NCBI GenBank assembly: GCA_964497535.1
Contig: CAZCCG010000001.1
Location: forward strand, 2,688-66,687
Direction: 5' to 3'
DNA length: 64,000 nt
From: an uncultured Gammaproteobacteria bacterium
GTDB lineage: Bacteria; Patescibacteriota; Microgenomatia; Levybacterales; UBA12049
This document shows, piece after piece, positions 13,639 through 59,267 of the stretch (position 1 is its first letter; each line of letters starts with the position of its first letter). Below the pieces are notes generated by a model. It was not told the origin of the DNA, searched no databases, and saw only the letters and a list, made by a program, of their open reading frames with translations. Made by a program: the position numbers and the translations under genes.

Positions 13639-13644
13639 AATAAT

Positions 13645-38118: not shown

Positions 38119-39412
38119 CAACGCAGGACTGGATCAGCAATCAGCGAAACAGAACCAGCCAGAGCTTTCAGTAGTACACCCAAAAGAGCCTCCTCCCCCC
38201 CCAGAATCAGAAAAAAATGAAGGAAAGAAACTTGCTGCATTTGCACAAAGGGTGAAAAACATTGGGGGGACCGCACGAGACCGCTTAGCAGCAATAGCCT
38301 ATGAATCAGATTATAGTCCTGGAAGAGAATTCCTGCTTACACGCTTCAATCAATTTGTTGAAAGACTGCAAAGGGCTGAGAAAGAACCGCAAAAACTTGA
38401 AATGGAAACATATGGCAATATGGATGTCCTTGCCCTCTTGAGAGGAGAGTTATCAAAAGAAGATCCGACAATTCCGGAAACACAGAAACGCAAATTAATG
38501 GTTCTGCTACTCGGTGGTGGACAATCTGGCATTATTGGAGCCGGCGTTGTTCGAGCAATGGAAAAAGCTGGCGTTTTGGATACGGTAGATGGCTTCATTG
38601 GAGGATCAGCTGGATCATGTGCAATTCCCTGTATTGCAACCAGAACAACAGAACAAGGAGCGCAGATTTATCTCAAAAATGCAGAAAATAACAACTTTGT
38701 AAAATTACCAAAAGGGATACGCAACAGAGTGAAAGCACTGTGGGATTTATATCGTCATGGGTCAAAAAAAGCAGTTATCGATACAGAATTTGTTTGTAAT
38801 GAAATAAGCCAACTGGTTGATCCTAGAATTGATATGATTAAAAACTGTCATCAAGAACTCAAAGTAATTGTTATGGATACTGCTACAGGAAGACCAATGG
38901 TTGTTGATTTAAAGACACTAGAAAATCCTATGCAGGCAATACGGGGATCAACATGCGTACCAGGAGCATCAACTCTTTCTTCTGTTGAGTTGAATGGAAA
39001 ACAAGTTGCTGATGGTGCCTATGCAAAACAGATTCCTCTCCAAGAAGCTTTCCTAGAAGGAGCTACGGATGTACTGATTATTGCCAACTCACCCTTGGGA
39101 CAAGCAGGAGGAGTCTTAAGTGATTTACAAGCAATAGTAATGGCTCAAGCAGCACGAGGGTATGGATATAATAACCATGTGCGTCAAACCATTAGTGACT
39201 ATGACCAACGATGGAACGAACAATCTCGATTCGTTAATCATATTATACAAATGAATAACCCTAACCGTCGCGTTGCAGTTATGGCTCCAAAAAAAAGTGT
39301 TATTTCCCCTATCGAAGACCGAAAAGTAGTATTAGAAGATGCATTTAGTCGTGCAGAATCCTTTGGACAAGAAGTAGTAAAACCACAAAGAGCTATGGCT
39401 CAAGCAGCATAA
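38108..39412 (+). CDS. patatin-like phospholipase with ~150-aa N-terminal extension
   Basis: LLGGGQSGIIGAG (GGGxxG oxyanion loop) and GGSAGS (GxSxG). Confidence 0.6.
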   Translation: MIDNNAGLDQQSAKQNQPELSVVHPKEPPPPPESEKNEGKKLAAFAQRVKNIGGTARDRLAAIAYESDYSPGREFLLTRFNQFVERLQRAEKEPQKLEMETYGNMDVLALLRGELSKEDPTIPETQKRKLMVLLLGGGQSGIIGAGVVRAMEKAGVLDTVDGFIGGSAGSCAIPCIATRTTEQGAQIYLKNAENNNFVKLPKGIRNRVKALWDLYRHGSKKAVIDTEFVCNEISQLVDPRIDMIKNCHQELKVIVMDTATGRPMVVDLKTLENPMQAIRGSTCVPGASTLSSVELNGKQVADGAYAKQIPLQEAFLEGATDVLIIANSPLGQAGGVLSDLQAIVMAQAARGYGYNNHVRQTISDYDQRWNEQSRFVNHIIQMNNPNRRVAVMAPKKSVISPIEDRKVVLEDAFSRAESFGQEVVKPQRAMAQAA

Positions 39413-40930: not shown

Positions 40931-41055
40931 TATGTATTATTCTAGCAAATCCTTCCCTGACGGGTTGGGTGTAGCACCGTGCCCTTGGCCGGTTGCTGGA
41001 TGGATCATCGAGCCAATACTCTCCCCATCTCTCACGATTTATTTAATTAATCCTA

Positions 41056-45610: not shown

Positions 45611-46393
45611 ATGCAAAACCCCCGAATAGTTGTTATTGCCGACTATGGTACCGGTGACCCGGCTTTTACCGAAGTAGTACTGCAGCTTGGCAAGCTTATT
45701 CCGCAGGCTACCATTCTTCCCCAATCCACTCCCCCTTTTAGTACGGTAAATACCGGTTTCTGGATCTATCAACTGGCCTTAACCAAAGACCTTAAAAATA
45801 CCTATATTTTTTCCAATACCGCTCCCCGCAAAGACGATACGAATGCACAAACCAACAACAAGGGAGAAAAACTCATGTATGCCAAGCTTACGAACGGATT
45901 TGAAATAATGGCAGTAAATGCCGGTTTTGTATTTTCTTTTGTAAAACCGTATATTGCGGAGTTTAAACAGGTTGAAGTAGCCAATGAAGGGTCACAATTC
46001 CGATCCCGGGATTTCTACCCTACCGCTGTTGCCCAAATGGTAGCACAAAACCCCGTATACCAGGGTCAAACGTGCAATCTAGGGGATATTCCTCATGTTC
46101 CCCAAAGTGTTATTGCTTCTATAGATGGATATGGCAATATAAAGACCACGATCCGAAGCTCAACAATAGCTCTTACTCCAGGACAGCATGTCCAAGTTGC
46201 TATCGGCTCACATATCCAAGAGGCAATCTACACAGATGGAGTCTTTAATATTGCAGCCGGACAATTGGCTTTTGCTCCCGGCTCCTCAGGACATGATGAT
46301 AAATTTATGGAGTTATTTGTACGGGGAAAAAGCGCTTACAAGCTATTTGAAGGGCCTTCTGTCGAACAGGAAATCAAGATAACTCCCCGTTAA
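45611..46393 (+). CDS. hypothetical protein; weak resemblance to SAM hydroxide adenosyltransferase (DUF62) N-domain
   Basis: IVVIADYGTGDPAF..EV..L pattern resembles the TDFG..DPYV start of DUF62. The rest was not checked. Confidence 0.35.
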   Translation: MQNPRIVVIADYGTGDPAFTEVVLQLGKLIPQATILPQSTPPFSTVNTGFWIYQLALTKDLKNTYIFSNTAPRKDDTNAQTNNKGEKLMYAKLTNGFEIMAVNAGFVFSFVKPYIAEFKQVEVANEGSQFRSRDFYPTAVAQMVAQNPVYQGQTCNLGDIPHVPQSVIASIDGYGNIKTTIRSSTIALTPGQHVQVAIGSHIQEAIYTDGVFNIAAGQLAFAPGSSGHDDKFMELFVRGKSAYKLFEGPSVEQEIKITPR

Positions 46394-46740
46394 TTACCGA
46401 AAAAAAGCGTCGCCCACTGTTGCCAGACCGGCACATTGGGATCAGATCCCTTCAGATCAATGCTATCCCCCGACGGTGTTGCCACCGGCAGTAAAATTTC
46501 TTCCTCATTAGGTTTGATCAAAAGAAGCTTATTACGCGCCTGTTCTTCGATAAAATGAGGAGTTTGTGCATAAGAAATCTGTGCTTTGAGCCTCATGTTG
46601 TCTTGTTTTTGGAAATCAAGCTGCTTTTGGGCCTCAATAACTAAATTCTTCTTTTGCCAGAGGGTTATAATAGAACTAATTAGACTATTGCTGATAATAA
46701 GTGCCGCAATTAGGAGAAGAAAAAACAGTACTTTTTTCAT
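46390..46740 (-). CDS. FtsB/DivIC-like septum formation initiator
   Basis: N-terminal TM helix, coiled coil, EEQARNKLLLIKPNE motif. Confidence 0.6.
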   Translation of the reverse strand: MKKVLFFLLLIAALIISNSLISSIITLWQKKNLVIEAQKQLDFQKQDNMRLKAQISYAQTPHFIEEQARNKLLLIKPNEEEILLPVATPSGDSIDLKGSDPNVPVWQQWATLFFGN

Positions 46741-46825: not shown

Positions 46826-47686
46826 ATGAAGCAAATCGGATTACGGGATGCCCACCATGCATTTAAAGATTTTTTAAAGGAAAAAAAGCACTCAACATCT
46901 ACCATTGTAGCATATGGCAAAGACATCGAGCAGCTTGTTTCTTTTTTGGGTGAACTTGAAAAACATCAGGTTCATGAAGTGTCCAGAGAAGACCTGGAAG
47001 CTTTTTTGGGCAAACTTTCTGGAGAAGGCTATACTCCAAAGTCACTTTCCCGCAAAATTAACTCAACTCGAACCTTTTATCGATTCCTCAAGGTAAACGA
47101 ATACCTTACCGACGACCCGTCACTTCTGATCGAACATCCTAAATATGAACTTACTCCCCCACGAATTCTGACCCCAACCGAATATAGAGCACTCCGAGAC
47201 GCAGCCCGCAATGATCCCAGAATGTTTGCTATTATTGAGCTGTTACTCCAAACCGGAATCAGAATTGGAGAATTGGCTAATTTAAGAATGTCAGATATCC
47301 AAAAAGATATGCTGCGCATCCGACCCTACGAAAAACATGAAGAAAGAACAGTTCCTCTCAACAGATCAGCCAAAGAAGCCCTCACTAGATACCTCTCTAT
47401 CCGCCCGGAAGTCAAAGAAGAAAGAATTTTTGTCACCAAATCAGGCAAACCGTTTTTGGTCAGAAACATCAGAACCGCAGTAGAACGATATTTCCGACTT
47501 GCTGAGATCAAAACAGCCAAGGTAAATGATCTACGACACACCTTTGTCGCCCATCACTTGAAACATGGAGTATCCCTTATCCTTCTCTCAAAGATACTCG
47601 GACACAAGAGACTTTCTACCACTGAACGATATCTCGAATACGTGAAAGATAGGGCTAAAGAAACCGCTACATTAACAGAATTATAA
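46826..47686 (+). CDS. tyrosine recombinase (XerC/XerD-like phage-integrase family)
   Basis: N-terminal SAM-like core-binding domain. C-terminal R...HxxR...Y: LRHTFVAHHL...LGHKRLSTTERY. Confidence 0.8.
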   Translation: MKQIGLRDAHHAFKDFLKEKKHSTSTIVAYGKDIEQLVSFLGELEKHQVHEVSREDLEAFLGKLSGEGYTPKSLSRKINSTRTFYRFLKVNEYLTDDPSLLIEHPKYELTPPRILTPTEYRALRDAARNDPRMFAIIELLLQTGIRIGELANLRMSDIQKDMLRIRPYEKHEERTVPLNRSAKEALTRYLSIRPEVKEERIFVTKSGKPFLVRNIRTAVERYFRLAEIKTAKVNDLRHTFVAHHLKHGVSLILLSKILGHKRLSTTERYLEYVKDRAKETATLTEL

Positions 47687-47729
47687 TTTTTATAATAGTT
47701 ATAAAGATTATAACTATTATATCCTTCCC

Positions 47730-48443
47730 CTACGGCAATAAAATCCTGATGAAGTTCTCAGCGTAGGTATACCCTTTTTGCTTGCCAATATCCATTGCTC
47801 GATTCCTTACTCGCTCTTCTATTTTTTTAAAGTCCTCAAACTGGCTTTTGTGTCGACGTAGTGTTTCAATTTTCTTCTCCATAGTATGGGTAATATCCAC
47901 AACCGTATCTATCTTTTCAAAGCTGGTGAGCCATAATTCTTTTACTTTGTGCGGCTTAAGGCCTTCTTTCTCATGTTCCAAGAAAGTGAGTCGGTCTCGA
48001 GCCAGTGGAAATACCGCATCGAGTGTTGCCAAGGCAGCTGCCCGATGGTCAGTGTGATTCACCATACCGCTGCCTGAAAGCAGTGAATTTGTCGAATAAT
48101 AGTAGGTCGGATCCATAGTCATGACGATATCTGGTTTCAAGGTTCGGATCAGCCGTACGATTTCTTCTTTGAGTACCTGATCAGCAACCAGTTCTGTATC
48201 AGGATGGGTCAGAAAAAAACACTGTTTGACGCCTAATACTTTATTTGCATCTTTCTGTTCTTGTTGCCGTAGCGTAATCAGCTTCTGATGAGTCATATGA
48301 GGATCTGAAGAACCCTTGGAACCGTTTGTACATAAAAGATAATATGCAGTTGCTCCCTCCCCGATCCATTTGGCAATCGTCCCTGACGCGCCAAAATCAG
48401 TATCATCCGGATGCGCACCAACCGCCAAAATTACTTTATTCAT
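47730..48443 (-). CDS. PIG-L/LmbE-family N-acetylglucosaminyl deacetylase
   Basis: ILAVGAHPDDTDFGASGT motif. Confidence 0.8.
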   Translation of the reverse strand: MNKVILAVGAHPDDTDFGASGTIAKWIGEGATAYYLLCTNGSKGSSDPHMTHQKLITLRQQEQKDANKVLGVKQCFFLTHPDTELVADQVLKEEIVRLIRTLKPDIVMTMDPTYYYSTNSLLSGSGMVNHTDHRAAALATLDAVFPLARDRLTFLEHEKEGLKPHKVKELWLTSFEKIDTVVDITHTMEKKIETLRRHKSQFEDFKKIEERVRNRAMDIGKQKGYTYAENFIRILLP

Positions 48444-48463
48444 AGTATCTCTTCTCTCAACTG

Positions 48464-48534
48464 TAGGCCCAGAGGGAATCGGACCCCCGTCAAGTGTGTA
48501 TAAGACACCCGCTCTACCATTGAGCTATGGGCCT
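48464..48534 (-). tRNA. tRNA with anticodon TAT (tRNA-Ile-UAU, AUA-decoding)
   Basis: Hand-folded. Perfect 7-bp acceptor AGGCCCA/TGGGCCT, D-arm GCTC-AATGGTA-GAGC, anticodon loop CTTATAC, T-arm GGGGG-TCCGATT-CCCTC. Confidence 0.65.
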
Positions 48535-48584
48535 GGGAACTACGTAATTTTACCAGAGAGAGCTCAAGGAGACAAGCCAGGACT

Positions 48585-48715
48585 CGGTTACCAGTTCTCT
48601 GTTTTCTGTCATCAGATAGAAGTTCGTCAGTTTTCGGTACTTCAGTTTTAACAGATTAACTGAGAACAGATAAACCCGCATCTGATAACTGACAACCAAA
48701 AACCGATAACTGAAG
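48585..48715. repeat. repeat family A, copy 2
   Basis: Diverged copy of the 13645 element. Confidence 0.7.
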
Positions 48716-48724
48716 TTTCTATTC

Positions 48725-51091
48725 TTATAATCGAGCACGTTGTCCTATTTCTGCTTCGACCACGTGTACATCGCGGCCGTATTTGAGGCGGGAAAGCTCT
48801 TTGACGAGCTCGGAGACTCTCAAGTTCATCATAGATTTCTCAACAGCAACATCTTTGGTAGTATCCAGAGAAAAGGGAGGTACCGGTTCTCCCCCCACAA
48901 TAGTACGCACATAACAATTATACTTATCGACATTAATCAAATCTGCTTCGGTAAATACTGGCGTGAATTCATGCTGCAAATAGTTGGCATCAGTCACACC
49001 TACACGGAATGACGCAATCGTACCAACGTTTCCAAAAATAGCGTTTTTGACCTCTTCATCCATTTGTCCGATAAATTGGTTGGCAACAATCAACGACAAA
49101 CGGTATTTTCGGGCTTCAGATAGTATTTGGGCAAAATCAGGAGTCGCAAAGTTTTGAAACTCATCAACATAGAGAAAGAAATCACGCCGCAGCTCTTTGG
49201 CCATTGTCTGCCGGCTCATAGCAGCCACCAAAATCTGCGGTACGATAATAAGACCCAGGAAGTTGGAGTTCTCTTCCCCGATTTTACCTTTTGATAAATC
49301 AATGAGAAGAATTTTTCCCTCATCCATAGCTTTTCGCGCGTTAAACGCGCTTTCCGATTGTCCAATAATATTTCGAATCATTTTGTTGGTAACAAAGCGG
49401 CCGAATTTGGAGACGATATAATCCAACACTTCGGATTTATGAAAATCAGAGGTTTGGGCAATCTGATCTGTCCAGTACCTTCGAATAACCGGATCTTCTA
49501 CTTTTGGCAATAACTCTTGCACAAAGTTTTGATCTGTTAATGCCCGCACTACTTCCATAAATGTCGCGCCCGGTTCATACATACAGGTAAGCATGGCATT
49601 TCGCACTGCGTGTTCAAAACGGGGTCCAATAATACCGGTCTTATTTGGATCAAAGAGCTTGTACATAAGCCCAATGACTGAAGACACTACCAAATGTTTC
49701 TGTTGCTCAGTCTCGCCATAGAGCATGTTCATACCCAATGGCCGCTGTGTATCTGAAGGATCAAAAAGAATGACGTCTTCTGCCCGATTTGGCGGCATCA
49801 GCCGCAATATATCTTCAATCAAATCACCATGAGGATCAATAACAGCCAATCCCTCGCCTGCTTTGATGTCTTGCATAATCATTGATTTCAAAAGCTCTGA
49901 TTTCCCCGTACCGGTCTTTCCAATGATATACATATGCCGCATACGATCCTCTCGTTCAATATATACGGGTTTTGAAACACCTCGAAAGACACTATTTCCC
50001 AAAAAAGTACCGCTTGTTGGCAATTTTGCAGGAGCGGGAGCCCGTTTGGAGTCGACCCAATGAATCCCGGGGGTAGTAACGCTTTTATTGGGTAAGTGGA
50101 ACAATGTTGCTAATTCTTCTGAAGATAAGATACTTTTGCCACCAAACAGGGGCATATACCGATATAAAAAGTCCTGCATAAACATATTTCTGGTAAAAAA
50201 GTATGATTTATGCTTGGTAAATGAATTGAGTCCTTCAAATTGAGCAAATGCACTTCGAATATTATGCAAATGTGCTTCCGCTGCCTCAGTACTGCTGGAG
50301 GAGACAACAATACGAATAACCGATTTAAATCCTGGTTTTGAAGTTTTGTTGTCAACCCCTTCTAATTCTTTTTGGTCTGTCGAGTAACTTGCTTTTTCAG
50401 GATTTGATTCATTCTTTTTAGTCTTGGCGAGATATTTTTTCCCAATTTTTTTCCAGGATGAATCTGCAGGCTCCAACATAATCTGAATTGCAGCCCCCTC
50501 CCCCGGAGACATTTTTGCCAATACTGAAGTTATAGAAGCCAAAGGATCAGTTGGTAAGTCTTTAAAAACCTTGATTGGCAAATAGTTGGATGATTTCAGT
50601 GTTAACGTAATAAAAGCAACCTTCCCTGTTTCAGAAAAAATATTGTATTCATTACCTACAATATTTTCTATTTTTTGCCGGGAATGTTTGGGGTCGACAA
50701 TAGTAATATCTGCCTCAGGATATGCTCCGTTGATTTGTTTTTCTACCAAATCACGATATTTATTGGGAGTATGAACATAGAAGCGGATATCCCCCGGCAT
50801 ACCGACAATTTCAAAAGAAAGTGTCGGCTGAGAACGAAAAAAATCAAGATTACCGGTCCTACGAAGAGATGAAAGGCTGGCAAACATCTGTTCGGCCGCA
50901 TCAATTTTGATCTCGTTATTGCGAGGAACAGCAATCTGCAGAAGTGTTGAGTTAAGCGCGTCTGATTCTCGTCCCCGATTTCTATACCATAACAGCAATA
51001 GACGCCCCAACAGGAACAAGAATCCTGCACCGAATAGAAGTCCCACAAGACTTACTAACAGTACCAAAAGTGATGATGTAATATCTGTCAT
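48725..51091 (-). CDS. membrane-anchored P-loop ATPase, TraG/VirD4/TraD (type-IV coupling protein) or HerA/DUF87-like
   Basis: N-terminal TM helix. MYIIGKTGTGKSELL Walker A, IDPHGDL, Walker-B-like FLYVDEFQNF, RKYRLSLIVANQ. Confidence 0.55.
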   Translation of the reverse strand: MTDITSSLLVLLVSLVGLLFGAGFLFLLGRLLLLWYRNRGRESDALNSTLLQIAVPRNNEIKIDAAEQMFASLSSLRRTGNLDFFRSQPTLSFEIVGMPGDIRFYVHTPNKYRDLVEKQINGAYPEADITIVDPKHSRQKIENIVGNEYNIFSETGKVAFITLTLKSSNYLPIKVFKDLPTDPLASITSVLAKMSPGEGAAIQIMLEPADSSWKKIGKKYLAKTKKNESNPEKASYSTDQKELEGVDNKTSKPGFKSVIRIVVSSSSTEAAEAHLHNIRSAFAQFEGLNSFTKHKSYFFTRNMFMQDFLYRYMPLFGGKSILSSEELATLFHLPNKSVTTPGIHWVDSKRAPAPAKLPTSGTFLGNSVFRGVSKPVYIEREDRMRHMYIIGKTGTGKSELLKSMIMQDIKAGEGLAVIDPHGDLIEDILRLMPPNRAEDVILFDPSDTQRPLGMNMLYGETEQQKHLVVSSVIGLMYKLFDPNKTGIIGPRFEHAVRNAMLTCMYEPGATFMEVVRALTDQNFVQELLPKVEDPVIRRYWTDQIAQTSDFHKSEVLDYIVSKFGRFVTNKMIRNIIGQSESAFNARKAMDEGKILLIDLSKGKIGEENSNFLGLIIVPQILVAAMSRQTMAKELRRDFFLYVDEFQNFATPDFAQILSEARKYRLSLIVANQFIGQMDEEVKNAIFGNVGTIASFRVGVTDANYLQHEFTPVFTEADLINVDKYNCYVRTIVGGEPVPPFSLDTTKDVAVEKSMMNLRVSELVKELSRLKYGRDVHVVEAEIGQRARL

Positions 51092-51097
51092 AGGCAG

Positions 51098-51619
51098 TTA
51101 TGCGGCTTTTTTTTGGGATATATCAAATTGCCGAAATAATTTCCGAATGAGGGTACCCAACCACAATTTAGAATCGGCTGTGTTTCTATCCGTTTTAATC
51201 ACTGTCTCAGCCTGTTGAAGTGTCATGGGAGTAGGAAACGGCATATTCACCAACCCACTTGGCTCTGTGGCAACCGGCGTTACTTCTTTGGCATGGGTTA
51301 ACCCTGCTTGTTTATCATCATAGGTAAGGCTGGGAACTTCATGATTTGGGCTCACCTCTACTCCGGCTTCTTTTACCTCAGGGTGCAATTGAGGCTCTGC
51401 TTCAGATGGCCGAATCAATGACTCCGAAGGTTTGCTGATATCGATAGAAATTGGTGCAGCTTCTTTATTGGAACCCCCTGCTACCCCAACAGGAGCACTT
51501 GGCGCTTGAGGCGTAGCTACCGGCTCTGCCACAGACGCCCCCTGACCAGATGAAGCATTTTGCTGGCTGAGTGGAGCAGTTTGTGATGGTTGCATAGCGG
51601 CTTGGTCAGAAGCATCCAT
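51098..51619 (-). CDS. hypothetical protein with long disordered A/P/S/Q-rich N-terminus and a small C-terminal domain
   Basis: 173 aa, directly upstream of and co-oriented with the ATPase. Confidence 0.45.
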   Translation of the reverse strand: MDASDQAAMQPSQTAPLSQQNASSGQGASVAEPVATPQAPSAPVGVAGGSNKEAAPISIDISKPSESLIRPSEAEPQLHPEVKEAGVEVSPNHEVPSLTYDDKQAGLTHAKEVTPVATEPSGLVNMPFPTPMTLQQAETVIKTDRNTADSKLWLGTLIRKLFRQFDISQKKAA

Positions 51620-51683
51620 ATAGGTTAATCATAGCATGAAAGAAGAATTACAACAAACAAACTGATCGGGTAACAACAAGAGT

Positions 51684-52562
51684 TTATGCAGCTTTCTTTT
51701 CTTCTTTTTTATCTTTTTTCCCTTTGCAGATACACTTATATTCTTTTTTATTCCCTCCACAAACATCACATTTTTCAATCTTTCTTTCCACATTACCAAA
51801 AAGAGCAGGCCCAACAACCAACCGCTGATAGGGTTCTAAAGAAGGAAGACTATGTGATATCTGAGCAGCTTCTGCTTCTTTCAGCTCAAAAAATCGTGCA
51901 CAACTTGCAGCACAATCTGCAACAGTTGGACCCTGATCAACAATAACCATTGTCACATCTACATTTTCTCTACATTGCCGAACAATTTCTCCTACCTGCT
52001 CTTTATGAGCTTCGTCCTTTGGTAACTCTAACAGATTAAATTTGCGGGTCTTTCCCATATCCCATCCTAACACTTCCCCATCTTGATATTCATATGCACC
52101 TTGATAAATATGCCCTCCATCTGCAACTTTTGCTCTGGGCGTATCTGCAAAAAGACTTTCAAAATGATTGTTCTGAATTGTGGGCGCTTCTTCAAACAAT
52201 GATGGCAGTGTATTATAATATTTAACCATTGATTGACTCTCATGATCAGGATGGTCGGATGTTAGAACATTGCGAGGAACACTAATCAGCCTATCAAGTA
52301 CATCCATATTAAGCCCCGGTTGTGCTAAAACTTTTAAATCTCCATTTGCAAATGATGTAGGTTGTGCATAAGGATCTTCAGGGTTTAAGATTCCGGTCAT
52401 CATCTTATCTGTCATTTCATGTGATATATCCCGTGGAAGAGGATAAGAAATATAGGAAATATTATTCCCTTGCTTTTGAATGATCTGAATAAATGCTCCA
52501 TAATCCGGACTCATCGGTTCGGCTTCTTTTATTGGGTTTGGTGCGAATTCTAGTCTTGGCAT
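51684..52562 (-). CDS. hypothetical protein with Cys/Lys-rich C-terminal tail
   Basis: 292 aa ending ...CDVCGGNKKEYKCICKGKKDKKEEKKAA. First gene of the minus-strand operon. Confidence 0.5.
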   Translation of the reverse strand: MPRLEFAPNPIKEAEPMSPDYGAFIQIIQKQGNNISYISYPLPRDISHEMTDKMMTGILNPEDPYAQPTSFANGDLKVLAQPGLNMDVLDRLISVPRNVLTSDHPDHESQSMVKYYNTLPSLFEEAPTIQNNHFESLFADTPRAKVADGGHIYQGAYEYQDGEVLGWDMGKTRKFNLLELPKDEAHKEQVGEIVRQCRENVDVTMVIVDQGPTVADCAASCARFFELKEAEAAQISHSLPSLEPYQRLVVGPALFGNVERKIEKCDVCGGNKKEYKCICKGKKDKKEEKKAA

Positions 52563-52765
52563 AATTAGTTTATGGCGCGTGGCTCGTAGCGTATGGAAAT
52601 TTCTATGTGCTATATCCTATAACCTATGCGCTCCTCTCCTCCTGTTTTTCTGTATATGGACAATTGCGACAATTATTATTACAGCAAAATCCTCTTTTTT
52701 GCAAGAATAATTTAGTAAATACTACCATCCCATTCTCATCGATAGTATACTCTTGTTCATCTCCA

Positions 52766-53365
52766 TTATTCATGGGTTCTCCATTCTATTTCTTTTTTCT
52801 TTTCTCTCATATTTACATAGCGAGCCATGGTAAATAGTACATCTGCCAAACGGTTCAGATATGCGACAATCTGCTCTTCTACCGCTTCTCCTTCAAATAA
52901 ATTAATTACTCTTCGTTCTGCCCTGCGGCAAATAGAGCGGGCCAGATGCACCGACGAACCCGCAACCGAACCGCTGGGCAAAATAAAAGAATGCATTGGC
53001 TTGAGTTTTTCAGTAAGTTCATCAATCGTCTGTTCCAATTCTTTGACACGCTTTTTTAAATATGATGGCAAGGTTTTGTGGATCTCCATTCCCTTGGTCA
53101 CATGAGTATCATGAGGGGTTGCCAACACTGCACCGATTTCAAATAAATCCTTTTGTATCTGATCCAATTCATTTTTGAAGTTCTTCTTATATTTTTGGTT
53201 TTTAACTCTCGAGTTTTGGATTTGTGCACTGGCAAAACCCAATGCGCTATTGAGTTCATCAACAGTCCCAACAGCGTCAATTCGCCCGGAGCTTTTTGAG
53301 ATTCTCTTGCCTCCAAACAGTGATGTTTCTCCCCTGTCTCCAGTACGTGTATAGATTTTACTCAT
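52766..53365 (-). CDS. pduO: PduO-type ATP:cob(I)alamin adenosyltransferase
   Basis: MSKIYTRTGDRGETSL...GRIDAVGTVDELNSALG signature. Confidence 0.85.
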   Translation of the reverse strand: MSKIYTRTGDRGETSLFGGKRISKSSGRIDAVGTVDELNSALGFASAQIQNSRVKNQKYKKNFKNELDQIQKDLFEIGAVLATPHDTHVTKGMEIHKTLPSYLKKRVKELEQTIDELTEKLKPMHSFILPSGSVAGSSVHLARSICRRAERRVINLFEGEAVEEQIVAYLNRLADVLFTMARYVNMREKKKEIEWRTHE

Positions 53366-53864
53366 AAAAAATCCTCCTTGTTTCAGAACCCAAGAAGGAT
53401 GTGCGCACAAAAAAAATCCTGCTCGGGAACATCCACCAGCTGGCGGAAAAAGTATAGTTTTCTGGCTTTCCCTTCAATTCACTCAGGTAAAGGAAAATTT
53501 ATCCTGAGCTTGTCGAAGGACAGTAGCGGCACTGCCATGGATTTGCACCATGATTGCCTATACTTCCAATTTTTTATACTACGCTCTTTCTTTTTTGCAA
53601 TCAATACCCTATAACAAATTGCCTCTGTGAAGTAACTGGAGTATAATAGCTAGATTCAAAGTTGATCAAATCACTATTTGCGATCTGATTTTCTTTGAAA
53701 TCAGTACCTTAACATGTATGGAATAAATACCCTTTTTTCTCGGCAGAGACCACAGGAATGACAGTATCACCGATACTCTTTCTTTGGTCTTTGCTAAGAG
53801 GAGGGCAAAGGAAGAAACGGTAGACAATGCATCCATTACGCAACTCTCATAAGAGAAGGAGCTA

Positions 53865-54023
53865 TGGGTCAACAAGAAATCATCCACTGTGGCCAGTGCG
53901 GGACACCCATTCACATAACTAACCTTAAGCAAGTTCCACGAGCTGAAGGGATAGAGCTGAAATGCCCCGTCTGCCACGGTACACCCATAGTCAAACCCTA
54001 CTGTGAGTCTCGCGACAATTAGG
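53865..54023 (+). CDS. small zinc-ribbon protein (52 aa), absent from the ORF track
   Basis: Strong RBS AGAAGGAG 5 nt before the ATG. MGQQEIIHCGQCGT...CPVCHG, i.e. CxxC...CxxC. Confidence 0.45.
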
Positions 54024-54032
54024 GGAGTCCTG

Positions 54033-54317
54033 ATGGATCAGATTCCACCTCTCTGTGGCATCGAACGATGCAAACCTAGGGGTAGAAAGTTCAAAGTGGT
54101 CGTTATCAACCAGCACGCGCTGGGTGATGAAGCCATCACGAGGGCACTCTCACATCAACAGGGAAACTACAACCATCCTTTGGATATTACATCTCTGCGG
54201 GAACTCAGCAAAGAGAACGCAGAAGCATGGTGCGCCATGATAAATGACGTGCATCAGAAACTGGTAGCCTTCATCACACCGCCCGAGAACAAGAAGACAG
54301 TTGCACAGGAGGCATGA
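54033..54317 (+). CDS. hypothetical protein (high-GC island)
   Basis: MDQIPPLCGIERC..., with RBS GGGGAG. Confidence 0.4.
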   Translation: MDQIPPLCGIERCKPRGRKFKVVVINQHALGDEAITRALSHQQGNYNHPLDITSLRELSKENAEAWCAMINDVHQKLVAFITPPENKKTVAQEA

Positions 54318-54318
54318 T

Positions 54319-55128
54319 ATGCAACTTCTCGATGGGAAAACTGCTCTGATCTTTGGCGTTGCCAACGAGCGTAGTTTGGCCTGGGGCATCGCACAGGCGC
54401 TTGCCGCCCAGGGTGCAATGTTGGCGTTTACTTACGCAGCAGACGCGCTGGAGAAGCGGGTTCGCCCGCTAGCTGCTCAGGTCGGTTCCCACTTCGTCGA
54501 GCGCTGCGACGTTCAAGATGACACCGAGCTGGATACGGTATTCCGTCGCTTCGGCGAAGAATATTATCCACGGCTCGATATCCTTGTTCATGCAGTTGCG
54601 TTTGCAAAGCGAGAAGAACTCGCTGGACGCTACGTAGATACCTCCCGTGAGGGATTCCAATTGGCCCTCGACGTAAGTGCCTACTCCCTGGTGGCACTTG
54701 CTAAACGAGCTGCGCCGCTGATGGCAGGCACCAACCCGAGCATCCTGACGCTGACCTACGACGGCTCGCAACGCACGTATCCCAACTATAACGTGATGGG
54801 AGTGGCAAAAGCCGCTCTTGAGGCGAGTGTGCGATACCTCGCCCGAGATTTGAGCCCGGATGGTATTCGGATCAACGCAATCTCCGCTGGTCCAGTTCGG
54901 ACACTTGCATCATCTGGAATCCGTGGATTCCACTGGATTCTGGATCATGGTGCAGAACGAGCACCGCTACGTCGTAACATCGGACAAAGTGATGTCGGGG
55001 ATGCCGCTGTCTACCTCAGCTCTGACCTGGCCCGTAATGTCACAGGTCACGTGTTGTATGTTGATGCCGGTTCTCACATTGTTGGCGCAGAGCTAGGTGC
55101 CAGCGAGCGGGAAACTGCTGGCGACTAA
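54319..55128 (+). CDS. fabI: enoyl-[acyl-carrier-protein] reductase (NADH), FabI
   Basis: LDGKTALIFGVANERSLAWGIA N-terminus and the Y-x6-K region (YNVMGVAKAALE). ~57% GC. Confidence 0.9.
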   Translation: MQLLDGKTALIFGVANERSLAWGIAQALAAQGAMLAFTYAADALEKRVRPLAAQVGSHFVERCDVQDDTELDTVFRRFGEEYYPRLDILVHAVAFAKREELAGRYVDTSREGFQLALDVSAYSLVALAKRAAPLMAGTNPSILTLTYDGSQRTYPNYNVMGVAKAALEASVRYLARDLSPDGIRINAISAGPVRTLASSGIRGFHWILDHGAERAPLRRNIGQSDVGDAAVYLSSDLARNVTGHVLYVDAGSHIVGAELGASERETAGD

Positions 55129-55462
55129 TCCATTCCACACATCCTATCAGGGCGAGAGGGTGCAATCTTGTACTCTCCGCCCTGTAATTTTTACTTTTCA
55201 GCATTGGTTCGCGTAACGATCCGCGTAGTTCAGCGGTATTTTTGCGTTCTCTCTTCTTTTCCTCTATAATTCCAAACGAAGAATAATTCAGTTCCTTGTA
55301 GACTGTTGTTTTTCGCACATTTACATGTCTGCGCAAAAAAATCTTTGTTACAGAAGCAACGGCTATGGGAAGATAACTCCTTATCTTTCTGTAGGCTTTG
55401 CTTCTTCCTTCTTGGGTGCAACCCAAGAAAAATAACAGAGAAGCACGTCAGAAAGGGAACCC

Positions 55463-55915
55463 ATGAAATACAAAAGGCTTGTGAGTATTGTAGGAAACGG
55501 GATGCTGATGGTGGCGGGTCTTGGGCTTATGACAATCCCCACCAACATGCTGGTAATCATTCTGGGGATATCAGTCTATTCTATCGGAGTACTACAGTTC
55601 ATACAAGCACTTCGGCCCAGACCCCTGGTGAGACACTATGTCACCGACTTTGGTTATCGACTCGAGTTCTACCGACAAGCAGAGCTCTGGATATTTCGAC
55701 TTCAAAGGAAAAGGGGGAACAGACGTTTTAACCAATGGTATACCATCAGTCAATCCAGCTATTCTCCCCCCTTGACTCCCACGGGACTACACAGTCTGTA
55801 CGAACAGATATATAGAGGAGTGGATGCGGGATATGACCTGGAAGCAGGACGCCTCTGGAACCATATGCTGACATACCTGCACGGGCATCAACTCTTGGTA
55901 GGAGAATCTGCGTAA
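55463..55915 (+). CDS. membrane protein, hypothetical (high-GC island)
   Basis: Two N-terminal TM helices. Confidence 0.45.
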   Translation: MKYKRLVSIVGNGMLMVAGLGLMTIPTNMLVIILGISVYSIGVLQFIQALRPRPLVRHYVTDFGYRLEFYRQAELWIFRLQRKRGNRRFNQWYTISQSSYSPPLTPTGLHSLYEQIYRGVDAGYDLEAGRLWNHMLTYLHGHQLLVGESA

Positions 55916-55928
55916 GAAAGGACTGACT

Positions 55929-56531
55929 ATGCGTATCGCAGTCTTGTCTGAGGAACCCATCACTGAGTTCCCCCAGGAGGAGGGATTCGAGTGGACACGC
56001 GTCGGTCTCGACCCAGCAACCTGGTCACCCGGAAAATTCGATTGCTTCGTAGTGAAAAGCCCATACAGGAAACTCTTTATCCAGGAAGTAACCAAGAGGT
56101 GGAAATCCCGGAGCGATTTCCCTGCAGCTCCTTACCTTATGGTGTCACGCCGAGGACGGGTTCCCAAGGATTACCGCGACGGGTTCGACGGGTATGTGGT
56201 AAAACTACAGGAACTTGTAGAGTTTGCAGGAGCCATCAGCGACCGCAAGAGAGACTACGCCAACCGTAACAGAGTAGACACCCGACCTCCGTTGGAGCCT
56301 CCCCCTGTAGGTGAGAATCTATCCTGTTCCGAGTGCGGCCTGCTTCTGCGTACGACCGATCACGAAAAAGAGGGAGAGGACTATACCCCGTTCGTAGAAG
56401 AACGAACCCGGGGATGGGAAATCCCTTGTCCGGGATGCCACAACCCCCTGCGTATCTACGAATCGGTTACTGGACCCATACCCGAGTGGCAACCCCTCGT
56501 GGATGAGGCAGACTTGGGACGAGGCGTCTAG
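55929..56531 (+). CDS. hypothetical protein with C-terminal zinc ribbon
   Basis: CSECG...CPGCHNP. Confidence 0.5.
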   Translation: MRIAVLSEEPITEFPQEEGFEWTRVGLDPATWSPGKFDCFVVKSPYRKLFIQEVTKRWKSRSDFPAAPYLMVSRRGRVPKDYRDGFDGYVVKLQELVEFAGAISDRKRDYANRNRVDTRPPLEPPPVGENLSCSECGLLLRTTDHEKEGEDYTPFVEERTRGWEIPCPGCHNPLRIYESVTGPIPEWQPLVDEADLGRGV

Positions 56532-56556
56532 TACCACGCGCAGACACACCACACCA

Positions 56557-56583
56557 GGGCGGTCGAGTCTGACTCGACCGCCC
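56557..56583. repeat. GC-rich palindromic hairpin GGTCGAGTCTGACTCGACC (family shared with 662-686 and 63894-63917)
   Basis: gggcggtcgagtctgactcgaccgccc. Confidence 0.8.
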
Positions 56584-56629
56584 CCAAACATCCTCTACTA
56601 AATGCACCCATTGAAAGCTAAAATATGAA

Positions 56630-56762
56630 GTTCGGTTATCGGTTCTCAGTCTTCGGTTTTCAGATAAAGGTTCTTCAGTTTTCTGTTTATCAGTTAGAAC
56701 CGAAAGACCGATCACTGGTAAACTTCGCTCCGACAACTGACAACAGAGAACTGATAAGTGGA
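56630..56762. repeat. repeat family A, copy 3
   Basis: ttcggttatcggttctcagtcttcggttttc...gacaacagagaactgataagtgg. Confidence 0.8.
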
Positions 56763-56827
56763 ATAGATCCGCGTAAATCCGCTCTAAATCCGTGAAAATC
56801 AATTGAGGTATTGAAGAAATTGAACTA

Positions 56828-56869
56828 TACGCCACCAGCCTCGCCAGACGCGAGTCTAGGCGGGAACGC
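56828..56869. repeat. 42-bp inverted repeat, left copy (partner at 59806-59851) flanking nrdJ-nrdR
   Basis: tacgccaccagcctcgccagacgcgagtctaggcgggaacgc. Confidence 0.9.
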
Positions 56870-56888: not shown

Positions 56889-59267
56889 TTAGCAGGCGGA
56901 ATATCCGCAGGAGAAACATTTCTTGCAGCCTTCCTGATATGCCAGGGTCCCTGATCCACAATCAGGACAAATATCAAATAAATCAGTGTTGGGTAATCCT
57001 GTCGCTCCGCCTTCCAGGGTCAATTGCTGCATCATTGAAGATTTTTCTTCTGGTTCTGCCGCAACTGTATCCGCAGCAACCGGTGCATGATTATTTAGAC
57101 TCATCTTATCCTCTACGTGCCCATTCACTACAAATCCTGAATACTTTGCCATCACTTTTGCTACGGCGTCAGGCAATGATCTCACTCGATTGGGACCAAA
57201 CCCGACACTGCCTGAACCCCCAATACCTGCTAATTCTCCAACCAACGTTCTCATACGTTCTCTCCCCGGCACCGGGCTTGAGAGCCGCAAGAACTGAGAA
57301 ATAATGCGACCCAATGCATCTGCCATTGCCATGACATCTGATCCGGATTTTCCATGGTTGATAAAGACTTCAAACGGTTCATTTCCCCCATCATGATTAA
57401 TGGTAATATACACTTTTCCGGTTGGGGTCTCAGTCGCATATGTTACTCCCTGCACAACCATGGGACGAGGCAAAATCGGCTGTTCTTTTGCTTGCTCTAC
57501 AATCTCTTTTTTGACTTCTTCTTTTTTCTGATCCTCAACACGGGAGAGTACTCCTTCGCGGGATCCATCGCGCATATAGGTTACTCCTTTGAGTCCCAGA
57601 TCATACGCTGCCATGTAGAGTATCTTTACATCCTCAACAGTGTGGGAGTTAGGAGCATTCACAGTCTTTGAAATAGATGAATCAATATATTCCTGCGCAA
57701 CTGCTTGTACCTGAGCATGCTCCATGGGGTTTAAATCGTTTGCGCCGACATAATACCCCGGCTTTTCTGCATCTGGATGGTCTTTTTTCCATTCTTCAAA
57801 GAGCGGATGATACATGATGTGTTCTCCGGTTCGATCCCGTCGGATAAAGGTGAATTCATATACCGGTTCGACCCCTGATGAGACACCGGACAGAAGACTT
57901 GTCGTACCGGTTGGGGCAATCGTCAATAGCACTGCATTACGAATCCCCTGTTTTTTAATTTTGTCCCTGATTTTCTTTGGCAATGCTTTGATGTGATAGC
58001 CTTTCATATACTTTTTATTATCAAATTTGGGGAAGGCTCCTTTTTCTTTGGCAATATCAGAAGATGCATCATAGGCATTGTCACGAAGAACCTGGAACAT
58101 CTTTCGAATCGTCGGCATTGCTTCCTCTGATCCATAGCGCAGTTTCATTTTTATCAATGCGTCAGCAAGTCCCATGATCCCCAGTCCCGTTCGTCTGATC
58201 TCTTTGGCAATCTGCTCATTCTCAGGGAAGAAATAATAAGTCTGATCAATAACATTGTCCAAAAACCGCATGGCAACACGAACATCTTTACCAAACTGGT
58301 CAAAATCAAATTTCTCATCTTTCACATACGCTGCCAGATTCATGGCACCCAGATTGCATACTGCCCATGGCCCAAGCGGTTGCTCTCCACAGGGATTGGT
58401 TGCAACCAGTCTTTCAAAATACCAGGTGTTTGACCGCTTGTTGGATCGCTCCAGAAAATGAAGTCCCGGTTCTGCACTTCTCCATGCAGCAGTACAGATC
58501 AAATCCCACAAATATTTTGCTTTGATAGTCTTGTAGACTTTGACTTTCCCACCCATTTTCTTCCATTCATCCAGTTCCCCTCTCCAATGGGTATCATAAC
58601 GGGGATCATCCAGATCAGCGTATACCAGATCCCAATCTGAATCTTTTTTGACTGCTTCCATGAAAGCATCCGATACACAAACCGACAAATTGGCACCATT
58701 GATCTTTGAGAGGTCTTGTTTGACTGTAATAAATTCTTCAACATCCGGATGCCAATCCCACAGCATAAGCATTGTGGCCCCACGACGAGTACCGCCTTGT
58801 TGCACGACATCATGAGTTGCGTAGGAGAAAAGCCCTGCCCACGTGACTGGACCCGATGAAGTTCCATTGACCTTTTTGACACGCGCGCCACGCGGTCGAA
58901 GAGATGAAAGATTAAGCCCTACTCCGCCTGAGCGGGATTGAATTTCAACCAATTGTTTGAGTGAGTCCAAAATTCCTTCTCGTGAATCTTTGGGAGATGG
59001 GATAACGAAACAATTAAAATACGTAACCTGGTATCCTGTTCCGGCACCGGATAAGATGCGCCCACCGGGAACAAATTTAAAATCGGACATGACATTATAA
59101 AATGCCTCTTCCCACTGTGCCCGTTTTGGAGCTTTTTCAATTTCTGCGATACCCCGAGCAACCCGTCTCCACATGTCTTCTGGTGTTGGTTCTGTGGGAT
59201 TCCCCTCTTTATCTTTCAAAGAGTATCGATCCAAAAATACTTTTTCGCGAATTCCGTCAAGTTTCAT
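56889..59267 (-). CDS. nrdJ: adenosylcobalamin-dependent ribonucleotide reductase (class II, monomeric type)
   Basis: NPCGEQPL active-site motif, B12-binding region, C-terminal zinc ribbon CPDCGSG...CKKCFSCG. Confidence 0.9.
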   Translation of the reverse strand: MKLDGIREKVFLDRYSLKDKEGNPTEPTPEDMWRRVARGIAEIEKAPKRAQWEEAFYNVMSDFKFVPGGRILSGAGTGYQVTYFNCFVIPSPKDSREGILDSLKQLVEIQSRSGGVGLNLSSLRPRGARVKKVNGTSSGPVTWAGLFSYATHDVVQQGGTRRGATMLMLWDWHPDVEEFITVKQDLSKINGANLSVCVSDAFMEAVKKDSDWDLVYADLDDPRYDTHWRGELDEWKKMGGKVKVYKTIKAKYLWDLICTAAWRSAEPGLHFLERSNKRSNTWYFERLVATNPCGEQPLGPWAVCNLGAMNLAAYVKDEKFDFDQFGKDVRVAMRFLDNVIDQTYYFFPENEQIAKEIRRTGLGIMGLADALIKMKLRYGSEEAMPTIRKMFQVLRDNAYDASSDIAKEKGAFPKFDNKKYMKGYHIKALPKKIRDKIKKQGIRNAVLLTIAPTGTTSLLSGVSSGVEPVYEFTFIRRDRTGEHIMYHPLFEEWKKDHPDAEKPGYYVGANDLNPMEHAQVQAVAQEYIDSSISKTVNAPNSHTVEDVKILYMAAYDLGLKGVTYMRDGSREGVLSRVEDQKKEEVKKEIVEQAKEQPILPRPMVVQGVTYATETPTGKVYITINHDGGNEPFEVFINHGKSGSDVMAMADALGRIISQFLRLSSPVPGRERMRTLVGELAGIGGSGSVGFGPNRVRSLPDAVAKVMAKYSGFVVNGHVEDKMSLNNHAPVAADTVAAEPEEKSSMMQQLTLEGGATGLPNTDLFDICPDCGSGTLAYQEGCKKCFSCGYSAC

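Follow-up and report, generated by a model that had tools for sequence, protein, structure and literature searches.

The described systems closest to the ATPase studied here are the VirB4 proteins and the type IV coupling proteins (T4CPs). VirB4 proteins (TrwK of R388; VirB4 of Thermoanaerobacter pseudethanolicus) are two-domain, membrane-associated enzymes with a VirB4 N-terminal domain followed by a C-terminal RecA-like ATPase. In T4CPs (TrwB, TraD, VirD4, DotL, Cagbeta), the TM segment leads directly to the NBD with no large N-terminal domain, and the motor domain contains an all-alpha insertion. For Cagbeta, a small regulatory partner is known, CagZ (PDB 8dol title). Within the Patescibacteria, VirD4-type homologues were reported in 2,918 of 3,035 genomes, exceeding the number of genomes with VirB4 (2,417), and only 148 out of 5,713 homologues are found near virB4 (PMC12102498). 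The authors of that study suggest exaptation, and the literature files the gene as an orphan "coupling protein". Since T4CP-type homologues are more widespread than VirB4, some genomes may carry the ATPase without a type IV secretion system (T4SS).

We analyzed a window of 64,000 nucleotides that derives from a CPR/Patescibacteria genome, as the initial annotation had assumed. All features listed there are present, with coordinates that were exact or off by one base (Table 1), and the ORFs of 292, 173 and 788 aa lie on one strand as claimed. The tRNA with a TAT anticodon was confirmed by both ARAGORN and Rfam, but its placement had to be revised: it is encoded downstream of and co-directionally with the ATPase, and its 3' end faces the PIG-L and Xer genes and thus points away from the ATPase operon. 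No other Rfam family was detected in the region, and promoter-like matches were not above chance in a promoter and terminator scan against shuffled sequence (16 vs. 12.5 expected).

Table 1. Features of the ATPase locus and its surroundings, in window coordinates.
Feature	Position	Strand	Evidence or remark
DivIC/FtsB septum-formation initiator	46390-46740	-	Pfam DivIC, 9e-13
Xer-like tyrosine recombinase	46826-47686	+	Pfam Phage_integrase + SAM-like N-domain (SAM_1)
PIG-L family deacetylase	47730-48443	-	Pfam PIG-L, 1e-28
tRNA-Ile(UAU), anticodon TAT	48463-48534	-	ARAGORN; Rfam 67.8 bits
Palindromic repeat, ~130 nt	48584-48713	no strand	between ATPase and tRNA-Ile(UAU)
Membrane-anchored ATPase, 788 aa, DUF8128 family, VirB4-type architecture	48725-51091	-	
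ATPase, RecA-like domain with all-alpha insertion (residues ~360-745)	48857-50014	-	
ATPase, Walker B (DE)	49148-49171	-	
ATPase, Walker A	49898-49921	-	
ATPase, DUF8128 N-terminal domain (residues 38-345), VirB4 N-terminal domain fold	50057-50980	-	
ATPase, N-terminal TM helix (residues 2-37), then basic YRNRGRE stretch	50981-51088	-	
Partner protein, 173 aa	51098-51619	-	stop 6 nt before ATPase start
Lineage-specific protein, 292 aa	51684-52562	-	variable slot

The description of the 788-aa protein as a TM-anchored P-loop ATPase of the type IV secretion ATPase clade was borne out, including its motifs GKTGTGKS (residues 391-398) and YVDEFQNF (residues 641-648). Precomputed Pfam matches comprise PF26449 (DUF8128), TrwB_AAD_bind, DUF87 and TraG-D_C. 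The protein has the layout of the DUF8128 family, i.e., an N-terminal TM helix, the PF26449 domain and a DUF87/TrwB-like ATPase, a length within the range of about 780-860 aa that delimits the family, and a full-length alignment to 80 genomic loci. A search yielded more than 5,900 homologues (5,977 clusters at 50% identity, E<=1e-30), and the best 120 of them are all 71-77% identical and all carry PF26449. Full-length homologues with 37-77% identity occur, among others, in Levy-, Woese-, Davies-, Dojka-, Uhr-, Magasanik-, Peregrini- and Berkelbacteria, in WWE3 and in Saccharibacteria; tandem paralogues are present in three loci (L046, L059 and L078). The ATPase is an ordinary member of a known, uncharacterized family, and we found no literature under the name "DUF8128". 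Another large ORF of the window (792 aa, 56889-59267) was considered as a paralogue and rejected, as it encodes a class II ribonucleotide reductase (RNR).

Analysis of the predicted tertiary structure (AF2; pLDDT 86) showed a single long helix at the N-terminus, in agreement with hydropathy (Kyte-Doolittle mean of at least 1.6 for windows starting at residues 1-18). The RecA-like motor belongs to the VirB4/VirD4/HerA clade and has intact Walker A and B motifs. Unlike HerA, the ATPase has neither a HAS-barrel nor a NurA partner. TrwK gave the best full-length Foldseek E-value (2.6e-17) with an alignment spanning both domains, and the ATPase has the VirB4 architecture, a VirB4-type N-terminal domain plus a C-terminal RecA-like ATPase. 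However, sequence identity to VirB4 is only 8-15%, the VirB4 model NF045975 reached only 17 of the 590 bits required, and none of the reported Pfam matches was to a VirB4-family model. Unlike VirB4, the protein has its own N-terminal TM helix in place of a separate VirB3, and genes for VirB3, VirB6 or pilins accompany it neither in the scanned window nor in related loci. It is also distinct from the canonical virB4 of Patescibacteria, which is often located near dnaA/dnaN. With T4CPs, the ATPase shares the all-alpha insertion seen in its AF2 model, and sequence-level matches to TrwB_AAD_bind, TraG-D_C and SXT_TraD lie around Walker A and after Walker B. The first of these matches exceeds its cut-off (33.8 vs. 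20.5 bits) while covering only profile positions 11-73 of 387, TraG-D_C reaches 25.6 bits (cut-off 22), and NCBIfam equivalogs for TraD/VirD4 stay at 20-50 bits against cut-offs of 250-650 (one at 49.7 vs. 366). In comparisons with solved T4CP structures, the matched part of the model is restricted to its last ~410 residues; these structures lack an equivalent of the ~300-residue VirB4-type domain that separates the TM helix from the motor. Also in contrast to T4CPs, this is a core chromosomal gene that is neither plasmid- nor ICE-borne, and no relaxase or T4SS genes are encoded with it in the scanned window or in related loci.

Directly upstream of the ATPase lies the gene of a 173-aa protein, separated from it by 6 nt. 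This protein combines a disordered A/P/S/Q-rich N-terminus with a conserved "EPxLxPEVKExGVE" motif and a C-terminal amphipathic "...DSKxWL..." helix; no TM segment was found by hydropathy. Its identity is 65% to P0122 and 34% to a 168-aa protein that L002 encodes at the equivalent position, and it represents a small-ORF family (type A) present in 13 Microgenomates loci. Across the related loci, a small same-strand ORF adjoins the ATPase start in 38 of 71 cases, compared to 46 of 308 control genes (15%). These partner ORFs evolve fast and fall into at least four sequence types. A common ancestry of the four types was not supported by hhalign (probabilities <1%), except for a weak link between A and A2 (E = 0.0018). 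We assume that the partner ORFs share a function across sequence types. The functional unit is a two-gene module of small partner and ATPase that occurs across CPR.

The proposed three-gene operon consists of this conserved module and the 292-aa gene, which lies 64 nt upstream of the partner gene, is lineage-specific and does not belong to the pan-CPR module. Its product has a Lys-rich tail with a CxxC...CxC pattern, and only two homologues were found among 5.8 billion proteins, one of them in the same position in L084. In L002, L006 and L008, this slot is filled by Cys-tail proteins of 460-480 aa; a common family with the 292-aa protein was tested by BLASTP and hhalign with negative results. 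The statement that the two accessory proteins have no recognizable family was correct.

The locus as a whole is embedded in a conserved gene block. Its order is GAPDH, a kinase, DUF5667, NrdR, RNR, CobAT, a variable slot, the small ORF and the ATPase, followed by tRNA-Ile, Xer and DivIC and, further on, MurD, TGT and TrpRS. This order is common to the window, a 1.08-Mb contig of GCA_026004395.1, and L084. The order of ATPase and tRNA-Ile(UAU), an opposing Xer gene and DivIC recurs in Levy-, Woese-, Davies- and Dojkabacteria. Of 85 related loci, 26, distributed over several candidate phyla, have a tRNA-Ile(UAU) 3' of the ATPase stop, usually no more than about 100 nt and at most 1.2 kb away. 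Xer follows just downstream in convergent orientation in 19 loci, down to 45% ATPase identity, and is itself 74-82% identical among Levybacteria-type loci; DivIC comes after Xer in 12 related loci. We conclude that the tRNA, Xer and DivIC are long-standing syntenic neighbors of the ATPase. The gap between tRNA and Xer varies, containing PIG-L in the window, an HTH_23 gene plus a 267-aa gene in L084, and no cargo in L002. Between ATPase and tRNA, most relatives have only 16-100 nt where the window has the repeat. This "family-A repeat" of the initial annotation is real, with further copies at 13644-13773 and 56622-56760 (70-73% identical); because each copy matches in both orientations, the unit is palindromic, and the copy next to the ATPase is predicted to form a hairpin of -45.7 kcal/mol (z = -3.8). 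Like the 292-aa and PIG-L genes, this repeat was inserted into the conserved block in a lineage-specific manner.

A tyrosine recombinase next to a tRNA and a T4CP-like ATPase had originally been read as an integrative or conjugative element (ICE), or what is left of one, in which Xer would serve as integrase and the ATPase would be the coupling protein. The differing cargo between tRNA and Xer among relatives would fit such an element, as would the match of the ATPase to phrog_5156 (3.9e-86). A phage origin was nevertheless rejected, as the IMG/VR contigs contain nothing but C-domain-only relatives and one fragment, which also speaks against an ICE. A repeat of the tRNA end, expected as an att site, is absent from the window (blastn-short, nothing >10 nt), and 46.0-53.5 kb contains only short repeats at chance level. 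The GC content (0.40-0.45) equals that of the flanks. Among the neighboring genes (about 44-64 kb) and the largest ORFs scanned elsewhere, no relaxase, VirB6, pilin or second T4SS gene was detected, and Pfam assigned housekeeping functions only. Further, the tRNA 3' end is directed away from the ATPase operon, and the ATPase is better conserved than housekeeping enzymes (77% identity to L002, compared to 68% for RNR, 68% for GAPDH and 57% for MurD). The gene order is kept over several candidate phyla and is the same in L002, L084 and many Microgenomates loci, without ICE-type variability. Because of this conserved synteny, with the ATPase in the same context and no att repeats, an outcome that the initial annotation itself had named as refuting, we consider the ICE reading refuted and leave it next to no probability. 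The region is conserved core chromosome of a Levybacteria-like Patescibacterium and not a mobile element.

Genetic data are available from a Saccharibacterium. Tn-seq in Ca. Southlakia epibionticum ML1 identified both SEML1_0141 (139 aa) and SEML1_0142 (1,019 aa) as essential (Wang et al. 2023, PMC10633639, supplementary tables), and the function of SEML1_0142 is not discussed in that paper. Their neighborhood, YifB(-), 117 aa, 139 aa, ATPase, 193 aa(-), ~535 aa(-) and gyrB, corresponds gene for gene to that of the Saccharibacterial full-length homologues (L054, L066 and L080). By this synteny and by best hits within the Saccharibacterial loci, the pair appears to be the counterpart of the pair in the window. 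As in the window, a small hypothetical ORF precedes a large P-loop ATPase, there with a gap of 12 nt. SEML1_0142 is a "TraM recognition domain" ATPase with its motor domain from about residue 380. It differs from the window ATPase by its greater length and a C-terminal extension, and SEML1_0141 is a type C small ORF, in contrast to type A in the window. A second paralogue, SEML1_0293, is non-essential.

With moderate confidence, we propose a core function for the ATPase as a hexameric translocation motor, probably of the type IV secretion apparatus encoded on CPR chromosomes. The connection to the T4SS is drawn from shared essentiality and a missing coupling protein, as the essential T4SS genes SEML1_0006-0019 form a cluster that "lacks recognizable coupling" proteins; the vicinity of the ATPase gene contains no T4SS component. 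By analogy to its structural relatives, the ATPase would assemble as a hexamer on the cytoplasmic face of the membrane, and ATP hydrolysis would power the movement of a macromolecular substrate into an apparatus spanning the envelope, or through it. This apparatus would most likely be the chromosomal Patescibacterial type IV secretion/pilus machine, whose genes lie elsewhere in their own cluster without a recognizable coupling ATPase. The fast-evolving partner could act as a lineage-specific adaptor or regulator, possibly analogous to CagZ for Cagbeta.

A serious, though less likely, alternative is a role of the ATPase in some other core process of the envelope that does not involve the T4SS, with the small partner as substrate adaptor, for instance to extract or export surface proteins or pilins or to import host-derived nucleic acid. 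The wider distribution of T4CP-type homologues relative to VirB4 and their near-complete absence from virB4 neighborhoods would agree with this, as would a C-domain equally close to the HerA DNA translocase and to VirB4/TrwB, and weak NCBIfam matches to CedD and CedB, ATPases of archaeal DNA import. How a cultivated Patescibacterium takes up host RNA has also been described as unresolved. On the other hand, other known occurrences of the VirB4-type N-domain are in inner-membrane complexes of T4SSs, and comEC-dependent competence is dispensable for viability of S. epibionticum (review PMC12857230). More speculatively, and in our view improbable, the DUF8128 ATPase and its partner could form a near-universal, VirB4-derived motor importing host-derived macromolecules (RNA/DNA) during epibiotic feeding, analogous to archaeal Ced/Ted and acting with the T4SS pilus or, where VirB4 is absent, independently of it.

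A role like that of FtsK, in which the ATPase would translocate DNA together with Xer and the divisome (DivIC) to segregate chromosomes or resolve their dimers, is suggested by the gene neighborhood, which includes dnaX or gyrB in other lineages, and by a motor within the FtsK-HerA superfamily. The Xer gene has the correct domain architecture for XerC/XerD, and its scores lie below the equivalog cut-offs, at about 167 bits for TIGR02224/TIGR02225 (cut-offs 335/330) and 156 for XerA (cut-off 220). We regard the FtsK-like role as unlikely. The ATPase has no 4TM, alpha or gamma domains, its match to Pfam FtsK_SpoIIIE stays below threshold (22.2 vs. 24 bits, 35 residues), and S. epibionticum has, besides this family, an FtsK (SEML1_0096) that is canonical, comprising alpha, beta and gamma domains, and essential. 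Xer is convergent with a tRNA in between, and the adjacency is absent outside Microgenomates and Dojkabacteria. Neither a conserved dif-like palindrome beside xer nor a GC-skew switch in the window was found. The perfect 14-3-14 palindrome after the xer stop (47691-47721), considered as dif, is not conserved downstream of xer in 22 relatives and is therefore probably a terminator. Finally, the PADLOC match to mad8 (66 bits) and weak HerA and DndH matches on the C-domain could indicate the motor of an anti-phage defence system of the HerA/DndH/mad8 type. The ATPase has no nuclease or Sir2 partner, its partner being a small disordered protein. Near-universal occurrence, fixed synteny, very high conservation and an essential Saccharibacterial counterpart are the opposite of what characterizes defence islands, making a defence function very unlikely.

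For the window, the result is the correction of an apparent integrative/conjugative island: the locus is fixed core chromosome and should therefore not be counted as a mobile element. Among the protein families specific to Patescibacteria, that of its ATPase is one of the most widespread. What is sharpened here is that the DUF8128 domain has the fold of the VirB4 N-domain, that a small fast-evolving ORF is tightly coupled upstream of the ATPase across the radiation, and that the Saccharibacterial pair assigned by synteny as its counterpart is Tn-seq-essential while a paralogue is dispensable. SEML1_0141/0142 thereby represent a concrete, genetically tractable candidate for a core translocation motor of the epibiotic lifestyle.

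All features named in the initial annotation exist in the sequence, and their positions are collected in the table together with those of neighboring features. The 788-aa protein carries the motifs GKTGTGKS (residues 391-398) and YVDEFQNF (residues 641-648), and its hydrophobic N-terminus was modeled as a single long helix. The tRNA-Ile(UAU) is real, but its orientation had to be mended: it lies on the minus strand, downstream of the ATPase gene and in the same direction, so that its 3' end, the point at which integrative elements insert, faces PIG-L/Xer and away from the ATPase operon. The family-A repeat is genuine as well and recurs at 13644-13773 and 56622-56760 with 70-73% identity. The copies each match in either orientation, and folding of the element gives a long imperfect hairpin (-45.7 kcal/mol, z = -3.8 for the copy beside the ATPase gene). 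These palindromic intergenic repeats of about 130 nt are made of 7-nt-periodic CAGTTNT-like units.

Features of the ATPase region and side observations elsewhere in the window (window positions)
Feature	Position	Strand	Source or remark
ATP-dependent DNA ligase	20122-21945		
Fic/DOC protein	22532-23581		
Patatin-like phospholipase	38030-39412		
SAM riboswitch	40944-41043	-	Rfam RF00162, 48.3 bits (gathering score 44.4); between TGT gene and small downstream ORF
Xer-like tyrosine recombinase	46826-47686	+	six-frame ORF list
PIG-L deacetylase	47730-48443	-	six-frame ORF list
tRNA-Ile(UAU)	48463-48534	-	ARAGORN and Rfam
Palindromic family-A repeat	48584-48713		intergenic, between ATPase and tRNA
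ATPase, 788 aa	48725-51091	-	six-frame ORF list
Partner, 173 aa	51098-51619	-	six-frame ORF list
ORF, 292 aa		-	six-frame ORF list
Cys-rich ORF, 49 aa (DUF5522)	52624-52773	-	between CobAT and 292-aa gene; called in Logan annotation
High-GC segment, 3.35 kb	53513-56863		GC 0.48-0.55 (about 0.41 elsewhere)
FabI-like enoyl-ACP reductase/SDR	54301-55128		in high-GC segment

The region had been read as a tRNA-linked integrative or conjugative element. A protein identical to the window ATPase is encoded on an NCBI contig of 393 kb and on a contig of the Logan assembly of SRR9179560. The window shares its gene order with L002, a 1.08-Mb contig of GCA_026004395.1 (GAPDH - kinase - DUF5667 - NrdR - RNR - CobAT - variable gene - small ORF - ATPase - tRNA-Ile(UAU) - Xer - DivIC - ... 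- MurD - TGT - TrpRS), and the JGI contig L084 has the same order. Compared with L002, ATPase (77% identity) and Xer (79%) are better conserved than RNR (68%), GAPDH (68%), TGT (61%) or MurD (57%). In a wider scan with one genome per GTDB species, from which the best 80 loci were retained, a convergent Xer gene lay directly downstream of the ATPase gene in 19 loci, with DivIC behind Xer in 12. The ATPase-Xer loci belong to Levy-, Woese-, Davies-, Shapiro- and Dojkabacteria, with ATPase identities down to 45%. The tRNA-Ile(UAU) follows the ATPase stop codon in 26 of 85 loci, mostly at a distance of 16-100 nt and on the same strand. A repeat search detected no att-like repeat bracketing the region, and nowhere in the window does more than 10 nt of the tRNA recur. 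The GC content of the region (0.40-0.45) is that of its flanks, and the neighboring genes scanned are housekeeping genes. Variable parts are small, namely the repeat inserted between ATPase and tRNA and the cargo of the tRNA/Xer gap (PIG-L in the window, an HTH_23 gene and a 267-aa gene in L084, nothing in L002). With the ATPase context conserved across relatives, no att repeat and no GC anomaly, the mobile-element interpretation is refuted; an ATPase conserved in the same context, without att repeats, is exactly the outcome that the initial annotation had itself set against its reading.

The most mobile-looking piece near the ATPase region is the high-GC segment, which also carries several ORFs without family and has a family-A copy on its right edge (56622-56760). 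Where the window has this segment, between CobAT and RNR, L002 and L084 carry nothing. In Logan assemblies the segment makes up a separate contig (L086, 100% identical) and a further contig, L001, stops at 53542, indicating that the assembly graph branches at both segment ends. The segment probably arose by horizontal transfer or is an insertion that varies among strains. The interval between the stop codons of the convergent xer and PIG-L genes contains a perfect inverted repeat (47691-47721) of 14 nt with a loop of 3 nt (TATAATAGTTATAA AGA TTATAACTATTATA). This repeat is not kept downstream of xer in relatives; we therefore dropped it as a dif site, and it is probably a bidirectional terminator. 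The tRNA-Ile(UAU) next to the ATPase gene is kept across Microgenomates and Dojkabacteria (about two dozen related loci) and is inverted relative to the ATPase in four of the related loci (L002, L008, L012 and L022). In most bacteria, AUA is read by a lysidine-modified CAU tRNA, and the routine use of UAU in these lineages may be worth a look.

The proposed three-gene operon held for two of its genes. The 173-aa gene ends 6 nt ahead of the ATPase start, and this pair is conserved; the 292-aa gene lies a further 64 nt upstream. Only two homologs of the 292-aa protein were found anywhere, one of them in the same slot of L084, and it has no relationship to the Cys-tailed proteins of 460-480 aa occupying this slot in three related loci (L002, L006 and L008). 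CobAT or a putative cysteinyl-tRNA-synthetase-like gene (read from the N-terminal sequence) takes this position in other lineages. With so few homologs and so variable a slot, the 292-aa gene is lineage-specific and outside the conserved module. The DUF5522 ORF is also present in L084, at a slightly different position.

For the 173-aa protein, a word-indexed search gave one non-self match only. It is 34% identical to the 168-aa protein that takes its place in L002 and belongs to a family (type A) found in 13 Microgenomates loci. Members of this family are disordered at the N-terminus, share an EPxLxPEVKExGVE-like motif and carry a C-terminal amphipathic helix in which a Trp is conserved. Across the radiation, 38 of 71 loci have an ORF of 85-200 aa on the same strand that ends no more than 30 nt from the ATPase start, compared to 46 of 308 control genes; under a more permissive criterion, a small upstream ORF was found in 71 of 79 loci. 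These ORFs comprise at least four sequence types that could not be connected by hhalign. The slot is kept and the sequence is not, which is the behavior of a fast-evolving adaptor or regulator.

The ATPase itself belongs to a known but uncharacterized family, Pfam DUF8128, of which it is an ordinary and well-conserved representative. Precomputed Pfam matches place PF26449 (DUF8128) on the N-terminal third of the window ATPase and of all of its best 120 homologs (71-77% identical, 782-798 aa), taken from more than 5,900 matches in the word-indexed search. An exhaustive search (E<=1e-30) yielded 5,977 clusters at 50% identity, and full-length relatives (37-77% identical) occur throughout essentially the whole radiation. 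At identities of 34-76%, neither Walker A nor Walker B varies, and several polar residues downstream are likewise unchanged. NCBI annotates the family as T4SS DNA-binding-domain protein. Sequence models place the window ATPase near coupling proteins only partly: TrwB_AAD_bind scored 33.8 bits yet covered just 63 of 387 profile positions, DUF87 scored 32.8 and TraG-D_C 25.6 bits, and the NCBIfam TraD and VirD4 equivalogs reached 20-50 bits (cut-offs 250-650).

An Alphafold2 model from an 18-sequence alignment (pLDDT 86) shows VirB4 architecture: the membrane anchor is followed by an N-domain of VirB4 type and the motor. The best full-length Foldseek match was TrwK/VirB4 of R388 (E = 2.6e-17, both domains aligned), whereas the likeness to TrwB is confined to the C-terminal ~410 residues. 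The sequence of the motor appears closest to coupling proteins. The ATPase fits the fold definition of VirB4, but neither the sequence nor the genomic-context definition of this family; of T4CP, it fits the sequence definition at best in part and the genomic context not at all.

The same motor (50% identical to residues 321-786 of the window ATPase) was also observed in ~1,450-aa proteins (P0178, P0183 and similar), joined to ~1,000 residues of TPR repeats and without the DUF8128 domain. Three loci (L046, L059 and L078) encode a second DUF8128-type paralog of 858-1,073 aa with the same N-terminus, one to five genes from the first, which agrees with a published value of roughly two copies in each genome. 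Additionally, phrog_5156 of PHROGs (824 positions, annotated as unknown function) matches residues 243-785 of the window ATPase (E = 3.9e-86), and IMG/VR contigs contained just C-domain-only relatives and one fragment; this profile may derive from misassigned CPR sequence or rare CPR phages.

Among 3,035 Patescibacteria genomes, Quinonero-Coronel et al. (2025) found VirB4 in 2,417 and VirD4-type T4CP homologs in 2,918, with only 148 of 5,713 T4CP copies near virB4; the t4cp homolog of S. epibionticum was dispensable, and the authors allow for exaptation (PMC12102498). For strain ML1 of S. epibionticum, the Tn-seq data tabulated by Wang et al. (2023) contain two ATPase genes of this type (PMC10633639). 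SEML1_0293 (921 aa, beside Cas9) is non-essential; SEML1_0142 (1,019 aa) is essential at 3/3 time points, and the 139-aa hypothetical SEML1_0141, which precedes it by a 12-nt gap, is essential too. The order in ML1, YifB(-, 506 aa) / 117 aa / 139 aa / ATPase / 193 aa(-) / 535 aa(-) / gyrB, is repeated gene for gene in three Saccharibacterial loci (L054, L066 and L080). Their ATPases align with the window ATPase at 39-40% identity, from about residue 6 (L054) or 60 (L066, L080) to about residue 785. We infer from this synteny that the 173-aa/788-aa pair has its putative counterpart in SEML1_0141/0142.

By sequence and predicted structure, the ATPase is a catalytically intact motor of the VirB4/VirD4/HerA type that is anchored in the membrane, and sequence comparisons show pan-CPR spread, fixed synteny and strong purifying selection; its gene is tightly coupled to that of the small partner. 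We propose that the ATPase would form a hexamer at the cytoplasmic membrane face, handle a macromolecular substrate at the expense of ATP and cooperate with a chromosomal T4SS/pilus apparatus encoded elsewhere. The partner may act as adaptor or regulator, by analogy with the partnered motor Cagbeta-CagZ (PDB 8dol title). The essential T4SS cluster of ML1, SEML1_0006-0019, is described as without recognizable coupling and relaxase proteins (PMC10633639). We consider the T4SS-linked version about an even prospect.

Half as probable, in our estimate, is a core translocase that works independently of a T4SS and could include import of host nucleic acid; host RNA uptake in a cultivated Patescibacterium has no settled mechanism in the literature, and the import idea is therefore kept open. 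An Xer/FtsK-like role is improbable: FtsK_SpoIIIE stayed under threshold on the window ATPase, and ML1 carries a canonical essential FtsK with gamma domain, SEML1_0096 (PMC10633639). Defense models gave nothing for the 292-, 173- and 788-aa proteins beyond generic motor matches to mad8 and HerA, and we give a role in defense, like an integrative or conjugative element, hardly any weight.

Three results may be useful beyond the window: DUF8128 is assigned by structure to the VirB4 N-domain, the slot for a small partner is conserved, and synteny links the module to a pair of essential genes in an organism that is tractable. The finding would be of high interest only if the substrate of the motor were host-derived material.
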